Part shown: positions 11,321-61,418 of the stretch, one piece after another | How positions within the stretch are numbered: position 1 is the stretch's first letter | Layout: every line of letters starts with the position of its first letter | Origin: a virus | Taxonomy: Duplodnaviria > Caudoviricetes | Virus record (IMG/VR): IMGVR_UViG_3300034110_000167 | Span: 1-61,418 of that record | Direction: 5' to 3' (one strand) | DNA length: 61,418 nt | Notes under the pieces: generated by a model | Database searches by the model: none | Seen by the model: only the letters and a program-made list of their open reading frames with translations | What the model was told of the DNA's origin: nothing | Position numbers and translations under genes: made by a program

Positions 11321-11724
11321 TAGCAGATGCATTACTAGGTTTTGGTGGAAAACTTCTAGATAAGTTTTTCCCAGACCCTATTCAAAAAGCAGAGGCACAA
11401 ACCAAGTTAATTGAATTAGCTCAATCAGGTGAATTAGCTAAGATGGCTAATGATACTGATCTATACAAAACAGAACAAAATAACTTAACAGCCAGACTTC
11501 AAGCAGATACTGCTACAGACAGCTGGTTGCCTAAGAACATTCGCCCACTTACCTTAGTCTATATTTTAGTCGCATATTTGTTACTTGCTATCCTAGATGC
11601 GAGTGTTTTAGACATTGCTGATTCATTTGTAGAATTATTAGGTCAATGGGGTATGTTAGTCATGAGCTTCTATTTTGGTGGTCGTACATTAGAAAAAATA
11701 ATGGATATGAAAAACCGGAAGTAA
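11317..11724 (+). CDS. 3TM-type holin
   Basis: DSWLPKNIRPL...two TM helices...SFYFGGRTLEK. Confidence 0.8.
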   Translation: MIADALLGFGGKLLDKFFPDPIQKAEAQTKLIELAQSGELAKMANDTDLYKTEQNNLTARLQADTATDSWLPKNIRPLTLVYILVAYLLLAILDASVLDIADSFVELLGQWGMLVMSFYFGGRTLEKIMDMKNRK

Positions 11725-31012: not shown

Positions 31013-31537
31013 TTACTGTGACGACAACAGCCCTAAGGTATTCCCATTTAAGGGAGGGATCTTTTCAAAGCTATATCCTTGATGTGTACTTTGTTTACCA
31101 TTTAAACATTTATACACTGCTTCTGGAGTAAAACCAAAATCTTTTAATTCATTTTTACCTGATAATGTAATTGACACACCATCTTTAACAGCCTTAATTT
31201 TGTATTTAGTTAAACCAATTCTACTTTTATTACCAATAGCTTGTTTACCATTAGGTTTAGGTGGCTTACCACCTCCTTTAATAATGTTCCAACCTATTTT
31301 ATCATTAGGTCTAAGCATTTCTTCAGCAAGCAAAACTAATTCTTCATCTAATCCAACAACTAACGGTTGCTTAATTAATTTATCCCAAGAATATTTTGAT
31401 ATAACATTATTTAAAATAGCGTTAGGGTAAGCAAAGTGTTCTTTCATTCGCCTATCAAAATTATTTGTAATGCCAATATATCCTTGAGAGTTATAGTCAT
31501 TATGGTTAGGACTACAGATCCAATATAATGTATACAT
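31013..31537 (-). CDS. Free-standing GIY-YIG homing endonuclease (Seg-like) within the tRNA cluster
   Basis: TLYWI...GYIGITNNFDRRMKEH; C-terminal NUMOD1-like VYKCLNGKQSTHQGYSF; AT-rich. Confidence 0.82.
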   Translation of the reverse strand: MYTLYWICSPNHNDYNSQGYIGITNNFDRRMKEHFAYPNAILNNVISKYSWDKLIKQPLVVGLDEELVLLAEEMLRPNDKIGWNIIKGGGKPPKPNGKQAIGNKSRIGLTKYKIKAVKDGVSITLSGKNELKDFGFTPEAVYKCLNGKQSTHQGYSFEKIPPLNGNTLGLLSSQ

Positions 31538-31970: not shown

Positions 31971-32060
31971 AAAGGGTATACGTCTCATATACCTAGTATT
32001 TCGTTTTGTATACCGTATAATACTTACTACGGGGTTAAGTCACCGAGAATCCCCAGTTTC

Positions 32061-35070: not shown

Positions 35071-37278
35071 TTAGCAAAAGAAATATTTTGAATTAATTAC
35101 TTCGGCTAAGTCTAAATTACCTAGCTCAGGTTGTTCAAAAGTAAAGGAGTCTTTGTTAAGCATCAAAGTATCTTTAAGTACTTCAAAGAAGTTTTCCACA
35201 TCATATTGTGCAATGAATGTTACTTTAGTTACTTCTTGTAGAAAGTCCACTTCATCAGCATGGGTACTAAATGAGTCGTGAACCGCACCAAATGAACCAT
35301 TGAAAGAAACAATAGTGTTAGCCATATGAGCAGCATCATAGGAATGAACAACGTTAGGGCTAATACCAGACGCAAAACTACGGCGGCAAGGTACACGCTC
35401 ATTAGTCTCTTTATTAATGACATCGACTTTAACCACATGCATGACACGACCGTCTTTATTGCCTTGAATACCTTTAATAGTACCACGTTGTTTCCTTTCA
35501 TGTTGTAGGTTAGCCTTATACACTACAGGAAAACCACTTGGGGTATGCCAAGTTAAATTGTTACGGCCAGAGTTTAATTCATGTTCAGCTATTTTCTGTA
35601 GGAACTTAGTAGTTTTCAGTGGACCAGCACATACACTGTTAATAGCTTTAATAAGGTTACTGGCAAGGTTATTACAGTCATCCTCACTGATACCATACTT
35701 TACCGTAAAGCCTTCCATGTGACAGTCATCGTACATGTTCTTTGCAATACGTTGCTTACCCGCTGAGTATGCTCGGGTCATAGAACCACGTTTGGCAATG
35801 CCTTTACGGATATGTTTCATGGGCATTTGCTTTTCATTAAACCATTCAGGCATAACAGTAATAAGCTCTTTAGCTACAGCTACATAGAAGTCTTTCTGAA
35901 TAGGAGTAGGTACTAAGGAGACTAATGTACCTGCTTGTTTATCCTTAGACATAGCTGCCAGATGTTGCCAACCGTTGTTACTACCATCAATAGGAATAGG
36001 AAACCCTGACATGTATTCTTGTCGTAAGATTTTACACTTATGATATGCAGCAATCTCAATACAACAAGCTAAGAAGCTATAAGGTTTTTCGGCACTGTGA
36101 TCAATGTATTTAGCACGAGCTGATTGAATAATAAACTCTAGGTTATGTTTAACCCATAGAGCACGATCATCCAACGTCATTTTATCTACAGAGATAGTGT
36201 CCAGACCTTCATCTTGGAGGTATTTAGCATAATCTGTGGTAAGGTATACCATACTTTTAAGCTCATCGATTGAATATGATTTGTTGTAACAAGCTGCAGT
36301 GTGTACGCTAAGCCAGTAGTAGCCTCGTTCACTGACCCGTTTTTTGTTAGCAAACAAAAACAAGGATCGAGCAAGATCACTTCCTTGGAATTCAAGAAAG
36401 GATTCAGCGTAATATACTCGTCCACGATAGTCACAGGATACCTCTTGATAAAATGTTTTGTTACCAACCAACTCAGCCTTCTTAATGACTTGATTATACT
36501 CAAAGTATTTACTAAGCATACGTTGTAGCTTAGGGTCTTTCTTACCTAAGAATTTTGTACCGTCAAGGTTATTAAGCTTCTTTGGTAAGTGCAGGTTTTC
36601 ATGGTGGATATTGTATAGTTGGATCTCACCATTTTCATCGACTAACTCTAGTACTTCTGGTGGTTTAACCGCTTTCATAGCAGACAACAATGGCTGATTT
36701 AATTGCCAAGGTTGTTGGCGTAACCCTTCAAGACTTTGAATGAAAGGTTTACTTAAGTACTCGTGAAACAGTTTACTGTTAGTCCATCCTTTAATAAAAG
36801 GTTCTTTAGTTAAAGGGCTATATAAACCAGCAATAGGTAGTAAGGGCTCAAAAGAAGTACCGATAAGTGTAGGCTTAATGTCATCGTCCATATTAACAAT
36901 ACGAACTAAGTAAGGTGCCTTACGACCATCGTATTCTCTGAAGATATCTATTAGGCTATCTTGTAGGAATGTCTCAAGTAGAAGATCTCCCAGAGACAAA
37001 GTAGTTTTGATATCTGATTCGTCAGCCCCAATACCTCGGGCAATTCTCTTTCCAATAAGATCAGATGCAAATGTGAGTTTAACGGATGCTGAATGAGTAG
37101 CATTTTTATTTCGGATACAGTATTTGAGTAAGGTATCCCATGCCTCATTGATAAATCGTTCGAGATCATACTCCCAAGTTGAATGATGTGCCAGAAGACG
37201 AGCACCTTCATTCTGAATCTTATCTGAGTTGAGGGCAATCTTCGATACACGTTCAGTAAGATATTGTAGTGGATTCAT
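35071..37278 (-). CDS. T7-like single-subunit DNA-directed RNA polymerase
   Basis: DYRGRVY, PIDGSNNGWQH (A), RKGIAKRGSMTRAYS (B), GISPNVVHSYDA, VHDSF (C). Confidence 0.96.
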   Translation of the reverse strand: MNPLQYLTERVSKIALNSDKIQNEGARLLAHHSTWEYDLERFINEAWDTLLKYCIRNKNATHSASVKLTFASDLIGKRIARGIGADESDIKTTLSLGDLLLETFLQDSLIDIFREYDGRKAPYLVRIVNMDDDIKPTLIGTSFEPLLPIAGLYSPLTKEPFIKGWTNSKLFHEYLSKPFIQSLEGLRQQPWQLNQPLLSAMKAVKPPEVLELVDENGEIQLYNIHHENLHLPKKLNNLDGTKFLGKKDPKLQRMLSKYFEYNQVIKKAELVGNKTFYQEVSCDYRGRVYYAESFLEFQGSDLARSLFLFANKKRVSERGYYWLSVHTAACYNKSYSIDELKSMVYLTTDYAKYLQDEGLDTISVDKMTLDDRALWVKHNLEFIIQSARAKYIDHSAEKPYSFLACCIEIAAYHKCKILRQEYMSGFPIPIDGSNNGWQHLAAMSKDKQAGTLVSLVPTPIQKDFYVAVAKELITVMPEWFNEKQMPMKHIRKGIAKRGSMTRAYSAGKQRIAKNMYDDCHMEGFTVKYGISEDDCNNLASNLIKAINSVCAGPLKTTKFLQKIAEHELNSGRNNLTWHTPSGFPVVYKANLQHERKQRGTIKGIQGNKDGRVMHVVKVDVINKETNERVPCRRSFASGISPNVVHSYDAAHMANTIVSFNGSFGAVHDSFSTHADEVDFLQEVTKVTFIAQYDVENFFEVLKDTLMLNKDSFTFEQPELGNLDLAEVINSKYFFC

Positions 37279-45277: not shown

Positions 45278-45877
45278 TTACTTTCGAAGGTTATTACTCA
45301 AATTATAGTACATATCAGACTTTAGTGCTCGTAACTGTAACAATAGCATTGTCTCTAATTCATGCATTTCATCATCAGTACCGTACGCCAGAATAGTACG
45401 CTTAAAGTCATCAGGAAACTCGTTATAGGCTTCTAGGAAAGCTTCACCTGACCCAATATATCCATCATCATGCGTTCCTTTGTGCTTTCCAAGGTACTTT
45501 CTGTCTGTACTTTTGGATACCCAAAGATACACAAATGACTCACCGCTAGAGTTGTAGGTGTTAGTTTCGGCGGGTACTTCGGTGTGGTACTCTCCTTTAA
45601 TATGGTCTTGCCAGATTTCTTTGACATATGCTACCCAAGGTTTATTTTTACTACGCCATAGTACTACAAAAGAAGGTGATCCTTCGTTTTCACAGAGATG
45701 TTCATAAACCCATTTGTTGTATAGACCTGAGAACTCTTTGTCACCTACTTTAATTCGGATCATTGACTTACCTGAATCACTGGTAAATTGTTCAACTTCA
45801 TCTACGGTACATGTATAGATGTCAAACAGTTTATCATCACCGGCAACCCAACGTTTAACTGTTTTAATAAGATTCAT
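45278..45877 (-). CDS. Protein with a C-terminal GIY-YIG-like domain
   Basis: FVYLWVSKSTDRKYLGKHKG...GYIGSG...YYNL. Confidence 0.7.
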   Translation of the reverse strand: MNLIKTVKRWVAGDDKLFDIYTCTVDEVEQFTSDSGKSMIRIKVGDKEFSGLYNKWVYEHLCENEGSPSFVVLWRSKNKPWVAYVKEIWQDHIKGEYHTEVPAETNTYNSSGESFVYLWVSKSTDRKYLGKHKGTHDDGYIGSGEAFLEAYNEFPDDFKRTILAYGTDDEMHELETMLLLQLRALKSDMYYNLSNNLRK

Positions 45878-56883: not shown

Positions 56884-57132
56884 TTAAATAGTTTGTGCTT
56901 GATCATACACAGCGGTGTACTCAATGACAATACCCGGTAATTCTACCTGAGCAGTCATGTTGGTCATTGTTTTTTGGGTATTTGCTATTGCAAACATTAC
57001 TGTGTTACCTAGTGGATCAATGCTGGTGAGCGTTGAACAGCTGAACTCTTCAAGAGCCTCTGTGATTTCATCGTAGGTGTTCATCCCGAACATTGATGGG
57101 ATAAGAGGTGTGAGTAATAAGAAGCGTGTCAT
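56884..57132 (-). CDS. Early hypothetical protein
   Basis: AAGGAG RBS. Confidence 0.7.
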   Translation of the reverse strand: MTRFLLLTPLIPSMFGMNTYDEITEALEEFSCSTLTSIDPLGNTVMFAIANTQKTMTNMTAQVELPGIVIEYTAVYDQAQTI

Positions 57133-57245
57133 AGTATTCTCCTTGAGTTATGACGGTTAAAGAGCAGAGTCTGCGACCCTGTAGTAGTACCGGATAGCAC
57201 TACCCATAGGACACTACAAGAATGTCCTACAGGTACTGTTATATA

Positions 57246-57575
57246 TTAGACAGCATCAACAATGTTATAGAACCATACGTTAGGATCGTTGCCACCAGCA
57301 GCAACAAAGCTGATCTTAGTCTGTGCATCATACACTTTCTGAAGACGCTTTGTCAAAGCCTGAACTAATTTCTCATCGTTGAGACGATCAATACGGCACT
57401 GACGCTTACGGTTATCAGAACCGGTAGCTTCAATAGAACGAGTTGTCTCATTGAATGTCAATTCAGCAATGGTCACAGGAAGGCTCTTACGATCTTCACC
57501 AAAGGGATTGTTGGTTGAGAAGGCAACATTGGCCTTAGCAGCGACTTTGAAGGAAGGAGTGAAAGCTTTAGTCAT
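57246..57575 (-). CDS. Early hypothetical protein with codon bias suggesting high expression
   Basis: AAGGA RBS; flanked by two homologous hairpins. Confidence 0.75.
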   Translation of the reverse strand: MTKAFTPSFKVAAKANVAFSTNNPFGEDRKSLPVTIAELTFNETTRSIEATGSDNRKRQCRIDRLNDEKLVQALTKRLQKVYDAQTKISFVAAGGNDPNVWFYNIVDAV

Positions 57576-57889
57576 GGTATTATCCTTGGTTGACTGGTTA
57601 TGGACGGATTGTCCCCATAGAATACTCAGAGAATATTCTATAGGTACAGAACCTTAATGGCAGTAATGTACATCCACCAGTGTTGGTAGGTATTGAGTGA
57701 GGTTTTGTTTGTCAGTTGTTTTAAACAACAGACGACCAGTACGTTTAGAGTAGACGTAGTACATTAGAAGTCCTCCTGAGAAACAAACAAGATACAACCT
57801 GCCATTATCCCTGACATTAGACCAACATAGGCCATAGGCCACAGACCGAAGAATAGTACCAGTATTACAGAGGAAACACTGATACCAGT

Positions 57890-58440
57890 GAGAAGGGCAA
57901 GCAAGAGAGGTGTGAACATAGTAGTCCTAGGTAACAGAGCAAAGACGCTCTCGGAAGGCACCACAGAGGAGCCAACCGGGAAAGCCCTTAGAAGGGGAGC
58001 AAGTCATCCGAAGCACGGACAGGGAAGAACCGAGACAACCAAGCCACAGAGCTTTCGACCCAAGCAGGAGGCCAACCAGACAACAGCACAACGTCACTGT
58101 AGTACGGAACAGCAACCCAGTCACGAGCAACAACACAGCCCCACAGCAGAGACCAAGCACGAGGACCACCGAAGGACCACACCAAGACAGAAGCAACAAA
58201 CGAAGCAAACATACCAACCCCAAAGAGCGCAGACAAGGAAGCCGACAGCACCGCGCCAAGCACAGCCGACAGGAAGGACGGGACCGCCGCAGACAACGCA
58301 GCCCACAGAAACGAGGGGGGCCACGGAACCAGAACGGGGGAACCCAAACAAACACACATCTTTTTCTCACACACAAAGAAAGAGATACCCACAGACAAAT
58401 ACCCAAACCAAAACTCCCAAAATAAAACAAGGGGTACCCT
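57890..58440. other. Non-coding, strand-skewed (T-depleted on +) region between the divergent arms; probable physical genome end
   Basis: Only one T in 58122..58358; iterated short motifs; lies between the first early genes and terL. Confidence 0.7.
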
Positions 58441-58538
58441 AAAACAATTTCCAATTACATCTCGCCAATAAAATATCACAATTATATTCTCCATAAAATA
58501 GTAATCTAAATATTACTCTTCCAATACGTAATATAAGG

Positions 58539-58555
58539 TAGTCGGTTCCTAATAG
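58539..58555 (+). promoter_or_regulatory. Putative phage RNAP promoter for the late arm
   Basis: TAGTCGGTTCCTAATAG upstream of terL. Confidence 0.75.
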
Positions 58556-58598
58556 GAAAATAATACACTTAGAGTAGTGTTAAATAAGGACACATACA

Positions 58599-60242
58599 TT
58601 GACAGTAACTAACAAACAAAAATTAGAAGCCCTGAGAGAGCTGCAGAAAAGACAAAAGTTAGCTCAATATCAAACTAACTTTGAGCTATTTGCAAAAGAA
58701 CAAATCAAAATTTTACCCAAAGACAGCTCTCAGGGATTTAAATACTTTGAGTTTAATGAAGCTCAAAAAATTGTTAACAATAAAATTGAAGAACAATTAG
58801 CGGAGACTGGAAGAGTACGTGCTATTATTCTTAAGGCCCGACAAATGGGTTTAAGTACGTATACTACAGCTAGGGTTTTCTGGAAATCCTATTTTAATGC
58901 TTACAACAAATCAGTTGTTATGGCTCATGATGCAGCTACCTCTGATGCCTTGTTTAGTATGTCCAGAAATACTATTTCAAACATGGACCCAACATTCAGA
59001 CCTGCATTTAAGAAATCTAACGCCAAAGAAATTATGTTTGAACATAATGATTCGGGTTACAGACTATACACGGCGGGTGCCCCTGAAGCGGGTAGAGGTA
59101 CAACACCTACTATTGCACACTTATCTGAAGTTGCCTTCTGGACACATGATGAGAAAATTCTTGCTGGTTTATTTCAGGGTATTTCTCAGGCTAAAGGTAC
59201 CGAAGTAATTCTAGAGAGTACAGCTAACGGTGTGGGTAACGCTTTTCACAGATTGTGGAAGGGAGCTGTTGCCGGTGAAAACGAATACATTGCTATTTTC
59301 GTACCATGGTTTCTGATGACAGAATACCGGAGAGAAATTCCTTCAAAAATTACTTTTGAAAGAACTACCGAAGAAGAGGTACTGGTCACAAGGTTTAACC
59401 TAGACAACGAACAACTGTATTGGAGACGATTAAAGATAGCTGAGGGAGGCTTAGATAAATTTAAGCAAGAGTATCCGGCTACACCTGAAGAAGCATTTAT
59501 TGTTTCAGGTTCTAACGTATTTAATATTGAGAAGTTATCACAATTAATTCCTCAGCCAATACTAAAGCAAATGGAGTTTAGTTTTGAATCAATGATGATG
59601 GAAGAAAAACCAAGGGGTTCAATAGAAATTTTTAAGTTTCCTACCTTTGAAGATTCTTTTGTTGTTGGCGCTGACGTTGCCTTAGGGGTAGGTAAAGACT
59701 ATTCCACGGCTGTAGTTATGAATAATAAAAGAGAAGTTTGTGCTGTATACAGAAACAACACAATAGATCCTTCTCAGTTTGGTGATCTTTTATTTTATCT
59801 GGGAAGATACTACAATAATGCCCTCTTAGCTGTTGAGTCTAATTCAATGGGTATAGCAACATTAAACCGACTAACTCAAATGGGTTATGTCAATATGTAC
59901 TATCAAACTAAGATGGCTAATGTGTCCAAAGAAGAAGGTACACGTATTGGTTGGAGAACTACTTCTGCTTCTAAACCTGCAATAATTGGCTTCTTAAAGA
60001 ATGCTATTGAGCAGGAAGATATTTGGATCCCTTCAAGAATTATTATTGGGGAGTTAATGAATTATGTGGCAGATGATTCTGGAAAGACTAATGCTATTAT
60101 TGGCCATAATGATGACACTGTTATTGCTTTGGCCATTGCCCTAGAAGTAATAAGAACTCATGGTGATAAATTAACAACTAACAATGTACCTTTTTCACAA
60201 AGAATGGGGTCATTCCAACAAATAGAAAGTACTTGGCTATGA
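58599..60242 (+). CDS. terL: Terminase large subunit (TTG start)
   Basis: ILKARQMGLST (Walker A), AHLSEVAFW, ESTANG, GADVALG, HNDDTVIALAIA; AAGGA RBS. Confidence 0.95.
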   Translation: MTVTNKQKLEALRELQKRQKLAQYQTNFELFAKEQIKILPKDSSQGFKYFEFNEAQKIVNNKIEEQLAETGRVRAIILKARQMGLSTYTTARVFWKSYFNAYNKSVVMAHDAATSDALFSMSRNTISNMDPTFRPAFKKSNAKEIMFEHNDSGYRLYTAGAPEAGRGTTPTIAHLSEVAFWTHDEKILAGLFQGISQAKGTEVILESTANGVGNAFHRLWKGAVAGENEYIAIFVPWFLMTEYRREIPSKITFERTTEEEVLVTRFNLDNEQLYWRRLKIAEGGLDKFKQEYPATPEEAFIVSGSNVFNIEKLSQLIPQPILKQMEFSFESMMMEEKPRGSIEIFKFPTFEDSFVVGADVALGVGKDYSTAVVMNNKREVCAVYRNNTIDPSQFGDLLFYLGRYYNNALLAVESNSMGIATLNRLTQMGYVNMYYQTKMANVSKEEGTRIGWRTTSASKPAIIGFLKNAIEQEDIWIPSRIIIGELMNYVADDSGKTNAIIGHNDDTVIALAIALEVIRTHGDKLTTNNVPFSQRMGSFQQIESTWL

Positions 60243-60520: not shown

Positions 60521-61418
60521 ATGACAGATAGATATAAAGAAGCAGTAGGGGATGAAGAACTTATTGCAATGATTGAGCAGGGTGTAATGAACTCTGTTGG
60601 TGACTTTTTGAATAGTGCTGACTTAGCACGAGAAAGACAAAAAGCCACATATGAATATGGTATGATGCCTCAGTTCCACCTGTCTCCACAAGGTGTTTCT
60701 CAGATTGTATCTTCAGATACGGTAGAGGCTATTGAAGGTTATACTGCTATTCTTGCTGAACTAATGTTCAACAATAACAGACTAGCTCGTTTTATTCCCG
60801 CTGGACAATCCCCAAGAGATTTTCATGAAGCTAAAGTAGCTTCTGACTTAGTTAACTATACTATTTTTAAACAGAACGCTGGTTGGGAAATCCTAAATAC
60901 ATGGGTTAAATCCGCTTTGCTATGGAAGAATAGTATTGTTCGTTGGGAATTTATTGAAGACTATGAGTACTCCTTTGAAGAGTACAGCTCTATTGACCAA
61001 GAGAATTTAGATATTATCCTTGCTGACCCTGATGTAGAAGTTACCGGGGAATTAGAGTACGAACAAGAACTGCGTACAGGTGAAGATGGTAATTCTTTTT
61101 ATGCTATGGTGTACAAAGATGTTCGGCTTAAAAAGAAGAATAATAAAACACGTATTAACATTAAGAACGTACACCCAGAAGCTTTCCGGATTACCCGTGA
61201 CGCACACACATTAGATGACGCCGCGTTTGTGGGTATTCAAATTGACATGACTCGTTCTGAAATCCGAAAGTATTTCCCTGATATTGCCGATAATATTGAT
61301 TGGGATAATATTGGCGATGGTTCTGCTGATTGGGCAACCAAGTACACGGAAGAACAAGCTGCCCGTAAAGCTTTAGTCGGTCAAGAATACTGGATTGGCG
61401 GTAATGCCCGTGAGGTAT
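60521..61418 (+). CDS. Portal protein, N-terminal part (continues across the junction to 1550; about 740 aa in total)
   Basis: ATG at 60521 after AAAGG; MTDRYKEAVGDEELIAMIEQG...SQIVSSDTVEAIEG...ALLWKNSIVRW; in frame with ORF 36..1550 through the overlap; lies downstream of terL. Confidence 0.88.
   Translation, partial: MTDRYKEAVGDEELIAMIEQGVMNSVGDFLNSADLARERQKATYEYGMMPQFHLSPQGVSQIVSSDTVEAIEGYTAILAELMFNNNRLARFIPAGQSPRDFHEAKVASDLVNYTIFKQNAGWEILNTWVKSALLWKNSIVRWEFIEDYEYSFEEYSSIDQENLDIILADPDVEVTGELEYEQELRTGEDGNSFYAMVYKDVRLKKKNNKTRINIKNVHPEAFRITRDAHTLDDAAFVGIQIDMTRSEIRKYFPDIADNIDWDNIGDGSADWATKYTEEQAARKALVGQEYWIGGNAREV
61194..61418. repeat. Terminal overlap, copy 2 (matches 1..225)
   Basis: Direct sequence comparison. 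Confidence 0.97.

Follow-up and report, generated by a model that had tools for sequence, protein, structure and literature searches.

Why does one strand of a phage genome with 30.3% thymine dispense with that base almost entirely over 237 nucleotides? The question is raised by a locus in an IMG/VR record, which we analysed whole (61,418 nt, 99% complete; hereafter the window). A first-pass annotation, made from the sequence alone, had noticed the stretch, placed it at the probable genome end and offered several functions for it. Our results show that the feature is real, conserved and, to our knowledge, undescribed. The adenine-poor zone on the complementary strand probably helps the phage to survive the first moments of infection.

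Composition and authenticity of the thymine-free run

Base counts for the plus strand at 58122..58358 give 95 A, 81 C, 60 G and a single T, at 58212, and no T in 58213..58358, which confirms the original observation. The longest T-free runs measure 146 nt (58213–58358) and 90 nt (58122–58211) and are followed by runs of 45, 38 and 36 nt, all inside 57952–58358; outside this interval the longest T-free run in the whole window is 30 nt. By simple arithmetic from the T content, the chance of a 146-nt T-free run at a given place is about 1e-23. The AT skew is at least 0.44 in all 200-nt windows from 57800 to 58499 and reaches a maximum of 0.90, in agreement with the T depletion that had been reported over roughly 57890..58440. 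The repeated words described in the stretch are also present (AGCCGACAG at 58240 and 58264, CGCAGACAA at 58228 and 58288). The CC-GAA-GG element near 58169 exists as well, but its description as a mini-hairpin does not hold, as it offers two base pairs only and lies within a coding frame.

An assembly artefact is excluded, because the stretch is also present in Logan contigs from three further lake-water runs: X2 (a single contig spanning 57121–59416), X3 and X12 (57797–58356). These runs differ from the window by a few substitutions, and one-nucleotide indels are found only within 58234–58336 (at 58234, 58315 and 58336). The sequencing runs listed as holding the stretch number 24, all of them lake-water DNA present as contigs; no RNA run is among the listed holders. 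Contigs from four of the 24, aligned to the window, revealed no termini.

The stretch lies ~3 kb from the contig ends. These ends share 187 12-mers at one offset, the last ~200 nt repeating the first. Since the contig ends within the portal gene and its two ends repeat each other, they are assembly ends rather than genome ends; the proposed location at a probable genome end is not confirmed.

Genome organization and predicted transcription

The phage is a podovirus of the SU10 type whose RNA polymerase is T7-like. Recognised genes include SU10-type portal, capsid and adaptor, a 975-aa gp16-like protein with a transglycosylase part, a family A DNA polymerase, a primase-helicase, a ribonucleotide reductase, a dCMP deaminase and an RNA ligase. 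We recognised no DNA hypermodification genes, and no thymidylate-synthase homologue, in the 37 + 40 ORFs scanned, and the early products have no family match. The RNA polymerase (735 aa; 35071–37278, minus strand) matches PF00940 at 4.6e-57 and T7 RNA polymerase (PDB 1aro) at 7.7e-28.

An 18-nt motif, TAG(T/C)CGGT(T/A)CCTAATAG(G/A), has six matches in the window at no more than three mismatches, versus 0.02 expected. The copies stand at 11722 and 58539 on the plus strand and at 32060, 43936, 53772 and 55252 on the minus strand, each in the direction of the genes downstream. The motif is conserved in relatives, and we read it as the probable promoter of the phage's own polymerase. The genome thus holds both marks of a T7-like scheme, a single-subunit RNA polymerase gene and a repeated, gene-directed phage promoter.

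The gene layout at the locus is divergent, with genes running rightward from terL (58599) and leftward from 57964, and the T-free stretch sits between the late operon on the plus strand and the early operon on the minus strand. The copy of the phage motif before terL, TAGTCGGTTCCTAATAGG at 58539..58556 on the plus strand, bounds the regulatory region on the right. A motif search finds no phage promoter on the minus strand between 55270 and 58500. A leftward sigma-70-like promoter (TTTAGA-18 nt-TATAAT, 10 of 12 consensus positions) lies at 58481..58510 on that strand, and we predict that the host polymerase reads the leftward early operon from this promoter, with the transcript starting near 58474. 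By eye, a TATAAT or TGnTATAAT is found at the matching place in most of 37 distinct relatives, where it stands ~110–150 nt before a GTGTGTG block. The promoter region directly upstream of the adenine-free zone retains mixed A/T and a conserved GGTACC.

Between this putative promoter and the adenine-free zone, the minus strand at 58381..58440 is A-poor and holds the palindrome GGGTACCC (58432–58439) and ~13-nt GGGTAT-type repeats, the copies of which vary among relatives from three to ~ten units (L070/L072/L074). Candidate roles for this region are those of an operator, an iteron or a terminal-repeat-like element. It is followed at 58359..58379, again on the minus strand, by a conserved block consisting of TCTTTGTGTGTG and a (T)AAAAGAATCAAG-type sequence (in the window ...GAGAAAAAGATG), at whose 3' end the adenine-free zone begins abruptly.

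The first-pass annotation had placed the stretch on the template strand of the early genes and just upstream of the first of them. The strand is right, the T-free plus strand being the template; the position is not, as 57988–58212 is itself the first early gene. Its further idea of an A-less leader transcript agrees with the adenine-free 5' part that the sequence predicts for the early transcript. Taken together, these data largely establish the T-free plus strand as the template for the first part of a leftward early operon that the host polymerase would transcribe.

An adenine-free leader and the first early genes

The predicted early transcript has an adenine-free leader at 58213..58358 (146 nt, minus strand), with an SD-like GGGG at 58218–58221. 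Among relatives the leader sequence is alignable and conserved, its length varies between 114 and 155 nt, every residue modulo 3 being represented, and its variability has no period of 3 (p 0.95 and 0.22). The free length, the missing period and the one-nucleotide indels in the other runs show that the leader is non-coding. It is also unstructured: folding of 58195–58372 is no better than that of shuffled sequences (z +0.81 for the minus strand, +1.22 for the plus strand), alifold of the leader yields five invariant pairs only, with no covariation or compensatory change, and an Rfam scan of 57000–59000 returns nothing relevant, its one match being at chance level and outside the zone. A/T-containing 4-mer palindromes are impossible by composition in 58213–58358, and none occurs. 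GC-only palindromes are present in the leader (GCGC twice, CGCG and GGCC), two of them within invariant motifs.

The leader is followed by the first early gene (57988..58212, minus strand; ATG at 58212–58210, TAA at 57990–57988), with a product of 74 aa (MFASFVASVLVW...SDDLLPF). Opposite the A of its ATG stands the lone T at 58212, and the start context reads GGGG, 5 nt, ATG. An SD and a start stand at the matching place in 33 related loci, and P0002 is a 74-aa relative of the product with 76% identity. The gene holds 10 A in 219 inner nucleotides, seven of the ten at second codon positions (D, Y, E). At third positions A is found once in 73 codons, versus 876 of 2895 (30%) in five long ordinary genes on the same strand. 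The AlphaFold model of the product is weak (pLDDT 63.5, three helices).

Open frames are uninformative at this locus, because a T-free strand and its A-free complement hold no stop codon; as a by-product of the purge, no ATG or TATAAT-type -10 box is possible on either strand either. With all six frames open, gene callers will tend to choose the wrong strand or the wrong start, and the gene call P0001, which starts inside the leader, is an example for annotators to heed.

Substitutions in relatives identify the coding strand. The relatives' long zones have a strong period-3 composition, and in 275 ungapped alignments between relatives, measured on their genes at this place and not on the window's gene, mismatches by phase number 1954/2874/5971; the slowest-changing phase is the second codon position of the minus-strand frame. 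Nei-Gojobori pN/pS over 10 disjoint pairs, again of relatives' genes, is 0.25 for the minus frame with the ATG (G-C-T-like codons), 0.33 for the plus frame sharing its third position and 1.1–1.7 for the other four frames. The relatives' minus frame begins with GGGG then ATG, or GGAGG then GTG, after the leader and stops at the zone's left edge. Together with the start context, the TAA, the second-position placement of A and the 76% identical relative of the window's own gene, these measures mark 57988–58212 on the minus strand as a protein-coding gene.

Two candidates were rejected. The 184-aa plus-strand ORF at 57888..58442 is not retained as a gene: its frame has a pN/pS of 1.66 in relatives, its third position falls by arithmetic on the second position of the minus-strand gene, it is closed by TAA, TAG or TGA beside the minus-strand ATG in many relatives, and it has no Pfam match. 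The 74-aa product is not a member of the 114-aa family described below, being unrelated to it by profile comparison.

The second early gene (57764..57919, minus strand) would encode a 51-aa hydrophobic peptide (MFTPLLLALLTG...) from an inner ATG of a 66-aa ORF, with AGGA before it. The depletion of A is fading in this gene, and in L013 its homologue comes first after the leader. A small conserved hairpin, AGAGC-6 nt-GCTCT, lies between the two early genes at 57936..57951 on the minus strand and recurs in L002, L003, L012, L044 and L078.

Conservation of the zone in relatives

A terL search yielded 80 related viral loci at 82–96% protein identity, of which 10 with little or no upstream sequence were left out. 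In the 1.5 kb preceding terL, 40 of the 70 loci have a T-free run of 100 nt or more, and 65 of the 70 have one of 44 nt or more. The longest run in relatives is 259 nt, followed by another of 178–180 nt, and their T-poor zones reach 830–905 nt. None of the 57 loci on the TerL tree has a T-poor zone shorter than 89 nt; zone length is very labile, with 22 state changes on the 57 tips, and some lineages are weakly depleted (L013, L015, L037 and others). The only match in the phage collection is Roseobacter phage CRP-7 (terL, 64% nucleotide identity), which has no such zone and in which co-directional small genes precede terL.

It had been proposed to check whether relatives keep the skew without keeping the sequence. 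The skew is kept, but the sequence is partly conserved: the leader can be aligned, and what follows it differs even between phages with nearly identical terL.

The first genes after the common leader differ as well. We collected 33 first ORFs (31 distinct) that fall into at least four unrelated families; in 15 further loci the start rule found no start. Among the types are a 52-aa two-helix peptide, in which none of 153 inner bases is A in five loci and 10–16 are in the others, a family of 114–117 aa, a family of 67–70 aa of otherwise normal make-up, and the 51-aa peptide which is the window's second gene. Over the 33 first ORFs, A occupies 123 of 2385 third positions.

The onset of the depletion is sharp and its end gradual. 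Averaged over 40 loci on the minus strand, the A content is 0.21 in the 100 nt before the block at 58359–58379 and 0.022 in the 100 nt after it; farther downstream it recovers through 0.033, 0.088, 0.13, 0.15, 0.20 and 0.28 to 0.33–0.36 beyond 1.4 kb. In the same 40 loci, T, G and C stand in the zone in about the proportions left by deleting A. Where A returns, A/T-containing 4-mer palindromes number 636 versus 741 expected in the zone and 1327 versus 1511 in the control, and GTAC is found at about twice its expectation. The palindromes are thus no rarer than composition predicts, which makes the base itself look like the target of selection. Palindrome statistics for the whole window (Markov ratios 0.67–1.24) and for 3-kb bins give no clear restriction signature.

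Because unrelated first genes are depleted and the constraint fades with distance, our data largely establish that in this phage clade adenine is purged by position, not by gene, over the first 150–900 nt.

Proteins reshaped by the purge

The consequences for the encoded proteins are best seen in the 114-aa family, which comprises 53 database clusters and corresponds to no Pfam family. Between 6% and 33% of its members' residues need an A-containing codon. The normal-composition members P0040 and P0047 carry K, T, I, N and Q where purged members have R, S, V, A and D, and the replacements include K to R, T to S and I to V. The purged form gives a confident model (pLDDT ~97 over residues 31–110) with an OB-like fold, the best structural matches of which (Z 7.8, Foldseek E 6e-3) are too weak to name a function. 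In a search for the genomic context of these normal members, P0040 was not found in viral contigs, the phage collection or genome contigs, and a scan with P0047 returned A-free relatives only.

Since one family spans 6–33% A-requiring residues and its purged form is still predicted to fold, the purge has reshaped real proteins. It is thus the nucleotide at a given place that is under selection, and the proteins follow, drawn toward some ten amino acids (F, L, S, C, W, P, R, V, A and G).

Explanations for the purge

The reading we prefer, to which we give a probability of about 40%, is that the purge serves to make first-entering DNA free of targets, a possibility that the first-pass annotation had raised for A/T-containing palindromic sites. 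In T7, promoter-proximal DNA enters first and waits, and slow entry precedes Ocr. By analogy, promoter-proximal DNA would here be drawn into the cell first by the host RNA polymerase, and the zone would lie open to attack ahead of the first early proteins. In a duplex where A is confined to one strand, no site needing A.T pairs in both orientations could occur, which would exclude all A/T-containing palindromes, Type I sites adenine-methylated on two strands and head-to-head asymmetric Type III pairs. The segment that waits longest would thus be uncuttable whatever the host enzymes, the variable first genes would be expressed from a protected zone, and the constraint would relax with distance. 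There is a parallel in T5-like phages, which are restricted only via sites in the first-entering region and in which sites near the first-injected end raise sensitivity (PMC10644984).

In favour of target-free DNA stand the T7/phiKMV-like layout, with early genes that the host polymerase would read, a gp16-like protein and a polymerase of the phage's own, the purge by position, its conservation among relatives, and the lack of A/T-containing 4-mer palindromes in 58213–58358. Against it, the contig-end positions of 61 loci form no sharp pile-up or common coordinate, with a mild excess 250–750 nt before terL; palindromes are not avoided beyond composition, with GTAC over-represented; GC-only palindromes stand in invariant leader motifs; no anti-restriction gene is recognised among the scanned products; zone length is labile and some lineages are weakly depleted; and mixed A/T and GGTACC persist just upstream.

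These points favour the main rival, protection at the level of RNA, which we consider possible but doubtful. The adenine-free 5' part of the early mRNA would escape A-dependent cutting or modification, whether by toxin or abortive-infection RNases, by adenine-modifying enzymes or by an RNase for host shutoff that the phage brings in or makes, and the first proteins would still be produced in the presence of such an activity. This would account for a purge that affects the RNA-like strand, in leader and synonymous sites alike, that starts downstream of the predicted promoter, that leaves the other three bases in roughly the proportions expected from removal of A, and that does not avoid palindromes beyond composition; the RNA ligase of the phage also shows at least that its life involves RNA damage of consequence. 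On the other hand, the downstream early genes, with 33–36% A, would be cut anyway, and transcription of the zone is itself a prediction. RNase E does not need A, and we know of no natural precedent for a nuclease-proof A-free message. Full-text literature searches found neither such a precedent nor a report of such a feature in phages.

The RNA shield can be joined to a second role of the zone, as a stop-free cradle or exchange site for new genes, a combination that we hold just as tentatively. Any GTG, TTG or ATG would here open a long frame, proteins could evolve and fold with about ten amino acids, and family members leaving the zone would regain the normal alphabet, as P0040 and P0047 may have done.

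It is unlikely that the depletion is a by-product of encoding small hydrophobic or secreted first proteins with U-rich, A-poor codons, even if such a U-rich, A-free message might also be guided to the membrane at the site of DNA entry. Many first genes do encode ~50-aa hydrophobic peptides, and the window's product is predicted to be helical; yet the most strictly A-free part is the non-coding leader, A is avoided at third positions even though GCA, TCA, GTA and similar codons would be synonymous, and the soluble OB-like domain is purged too.

Another kind of DNA signal, such as a terminal repeat or concatemer junction, a packaging site or a replication origin kept strand-pure for a DNA-handling protein, is improbable. 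The segment 58380–58440 and the GTGTGTG block resemble the right-hand, A-poor half of the T7 terminal repeat, where GGGGGTACC is present too, and iteron-like repeats of variable copy number lie just upstream. The depth of the unitig 57962–58269 exceeds that of its flanks (51.8 vs 25.4 and 21.7 in X1; 14.1 vs 5.4 and 3.7 in X12), but X2 shows no such excess, and a mixture of co-occurring strains accounts for the steps just as well. The zone is moreover protein-coding and hypervariable in sequence. It holds no recurring Chi-like oligomer in 34 non-redundant loci, where the only recurring words are explained by homology.

It is very improbable that hypermutation or a biased mutational process, for instance A-to-G change coupled to transcription on the exposed strand, produced the zone in place of selection. 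The non-template strand of heavily transcribed regions does tend toward G and T, but here the onset is sharp to within a few nucleotides, A is kept where the amino acid needs it (seven of ten at second positions), neighbouring early genes on the same strand are A-rich, and a pN/pS of 0.25 means purifying selection.

Coding on the plus strand, where the 184-aa ORF would be a gene without T whose product is very hydrophilic, basic and disordered, is hardly credible: an open frame exists, one plus frame has a pN/pS of 0.33 and relatives have TAA, TAG or TGA at one place, but the window's own frame stands at 1.66, the 0.33 frame lacks both a start codon and a stop at the point where the period-3 signal ceases, the codon position that changes most slowly and the conserved SD and start fit the minus strand, and the minus-strand products have folded homologues, by modelling, of normal composition. 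The earlier suggestion of an N4-style loading zone, at which an injected virion RNA polymerase would use single-stranded hairpin promoters, is just as implausible: the 1393- and 1264-aa proteins of the virion module have no recognisable family, so that a very divergent injected enzyme is conceivable, but they and the 975-aa protein give no Pfam, PHROG or PDB-sequence match to polymerases, the sole RNA polymerase found is the T7-like one with six promoter copies of its own, and the proposed hairpin has two pairs, versus the 5–7 bp stem and 3-nt loop on the template strand of N4-like promoters, in a region where both leader strands fold no better than shuffles.

Implications

If target-free DNA is the right reading, the phage would have made its first-entering DNA uncuttable without knowing the host's enzymes, by strand purity as opposed to site-by-site avoidance. 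This would be a new form of an old principle, that of T5 and T7, and in uncultured phages the zone would serve to find leading ends and early anti-defence cassettes. If protection of RNA is the right reading, this would be the first natural message built to lack a base. Under either reading, the zone would be a source of functional, well-folding proteins made without adenine (no K, N, I, M, T, Q or H), as the structure models suggest, and it offers a natural experiment on reduced amino-acid alphabets and on how a nucleotide-level constraint reshapes proteins.

Comparison with known systems

At the RNA level there is a likeness to the MazF system for single protein production: there, while the nuclease is at work, translation is confined to a message from which its ACA target has been removed. 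One triplet is missing from that engineered message, whereas the present case is natural and removes one base, and the nuclease here is hypothetical. Adenine-less tracts are also reported in vertebrate signal-sequence coding regions (PMC3635865, PMC2100147). The likeness lies in 5'-proximal coding sequence for hydrophobic peptides that is A-poor at synonymous sites and acts at the RNA level; the difference is that the vertebrate tracts serve eukaryotic nuclear export over tens of nucleotides, while the phage zone covers hundreds of nucleotides and includes a non-coding leader and soluble domains.

At the DNA level, the right half of the T7 terminal repeat (NC_001604, 100–160) resembles the minus strand at 58380–58440 together with the GTGTGTG block, in having an A-poor, T/G-rich run (…TTGGGTTTGTCTTTGGGTG…GTGTCTCTCTGTGTCCCT) upstream of host early promoters; the likeness extends to a GGGGTACC beside the A-poor run. 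The T7 run is ~60 nt long, non-coding and placed before the promoters, whereas the A-free zone here comes after the block and would be transcribed and translated.

The leading end of T7 with Ocr exposes early, promoter-bearing DNA before protective proteins are made, as the zone would if, as we infer, it enters first. The first-step-transfer region of T5 does the same (PMC10644984). In both phages particular sites are missing from an ordinary sequence, whereas here a whole nucleotide is off one strand over 150–900 nt, genes included. Kruger et al. 1995, as cited in PMC10644984, relate the strand bias of Type III sites in T7 to the disarming of enzymes that need two inverse sites. That bias concerns one site genome-wide; here it would concern any A- or T-containing asymmetric site, locally. 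We file the feature as a form of target avoidance in first-entering phage DNA, akin to those of T5 and T7, while an RNA shield joined to a gene cradle would be categorically new.

Composition of the early genes and genome arms

The adenine purge, the depletion of adenine on the - strand of the early leader and first genes, is not absolute within the population, because at position 58139, where the window carries C, the contigs of three other lake-water sequencing runs (X2, X3 and X12) carry T, which corresponds to an A in the coding strand of the first early gene (57988-58212, - strand). Codon make-up ranges from nearly adenine-free to normal across the family of 114-aa early proteins (P0003-P0055), found on the - strand of a related phage locus (L033, 4527-4868) and in its relatives. 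This family has no Pfam match; its N-terminus is disordered and rich in Ala, Ser, Pro and Val, and the predicted structure includes a confidently modelled OB-like domain.

In the arm that carries the early and middle genes (- strand, 29500-58358), GC-only 4-mer palindromes reach approximately 0.45 of the number expected from single-base frequencies. The corresponding value for the late arm, which spans 58556-29500 by way of the contig ends, is approximately 0.71.

Genome form, promoters and accessory genes

The last ~200 nt of the record repeat the first (1-225 compared with 61194-61418; 187 common 12-mers at one offset), and both repeated ends lie within the portal gene. The record, although labelled linear, is a closed, permuted assembly of ~61.2 kb.

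An 18-nt motif, TAG(T/C)CGGT(T/A)CCTAATAG(G/A), is present six times (11722, 32060, 43936, 53772, 55252 and 58539), each time in gene direction, and these copies are probably promoters for the phage's T7-like RNA polymerase. In one relative (L065), inspection by eye revealed a tRNA-like sequence ~20-95 nt before terL, between the late promoter and terL, which looks like a candidate tRNA-Asn with anticodon GTT. Two homing-endonuclease-like genes on the - strand, one of GIY-YIG type with a NUMOD-like part (31013-31537) and one matching phrog_314 (45278-45877), sit amid replication genes.

Repeats and similarity to the T7 terminal repeat

Upstream of the conserved GTGTGTG block (58359-58379, - strand), tandem repeats with a 13-16-nt unit, of the types GGGTAT.. 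and TAGAGAGTGTT.., are found at 58380-58440 and in three related loci (L070, L072 and L074). They adjoin a conserved palindrome, GGGGTACCCC, differ in copy number among close relatives (~3 to ~10), and resemble iterons or operators.

We compared 58360-58440 (- strand) with positions 26-160 of T7 (NC_001604). The T7 terminal repeat contains GGGGGTACC, together with a run that is poor in A, rich in T and G, and closes with ...CTCTGTGTCCCT. The counterparts in our phage, GGGGTACCC and ...CTTTGTGTGTG, are similar, and this segment may mark the phage's own terminal repeat.
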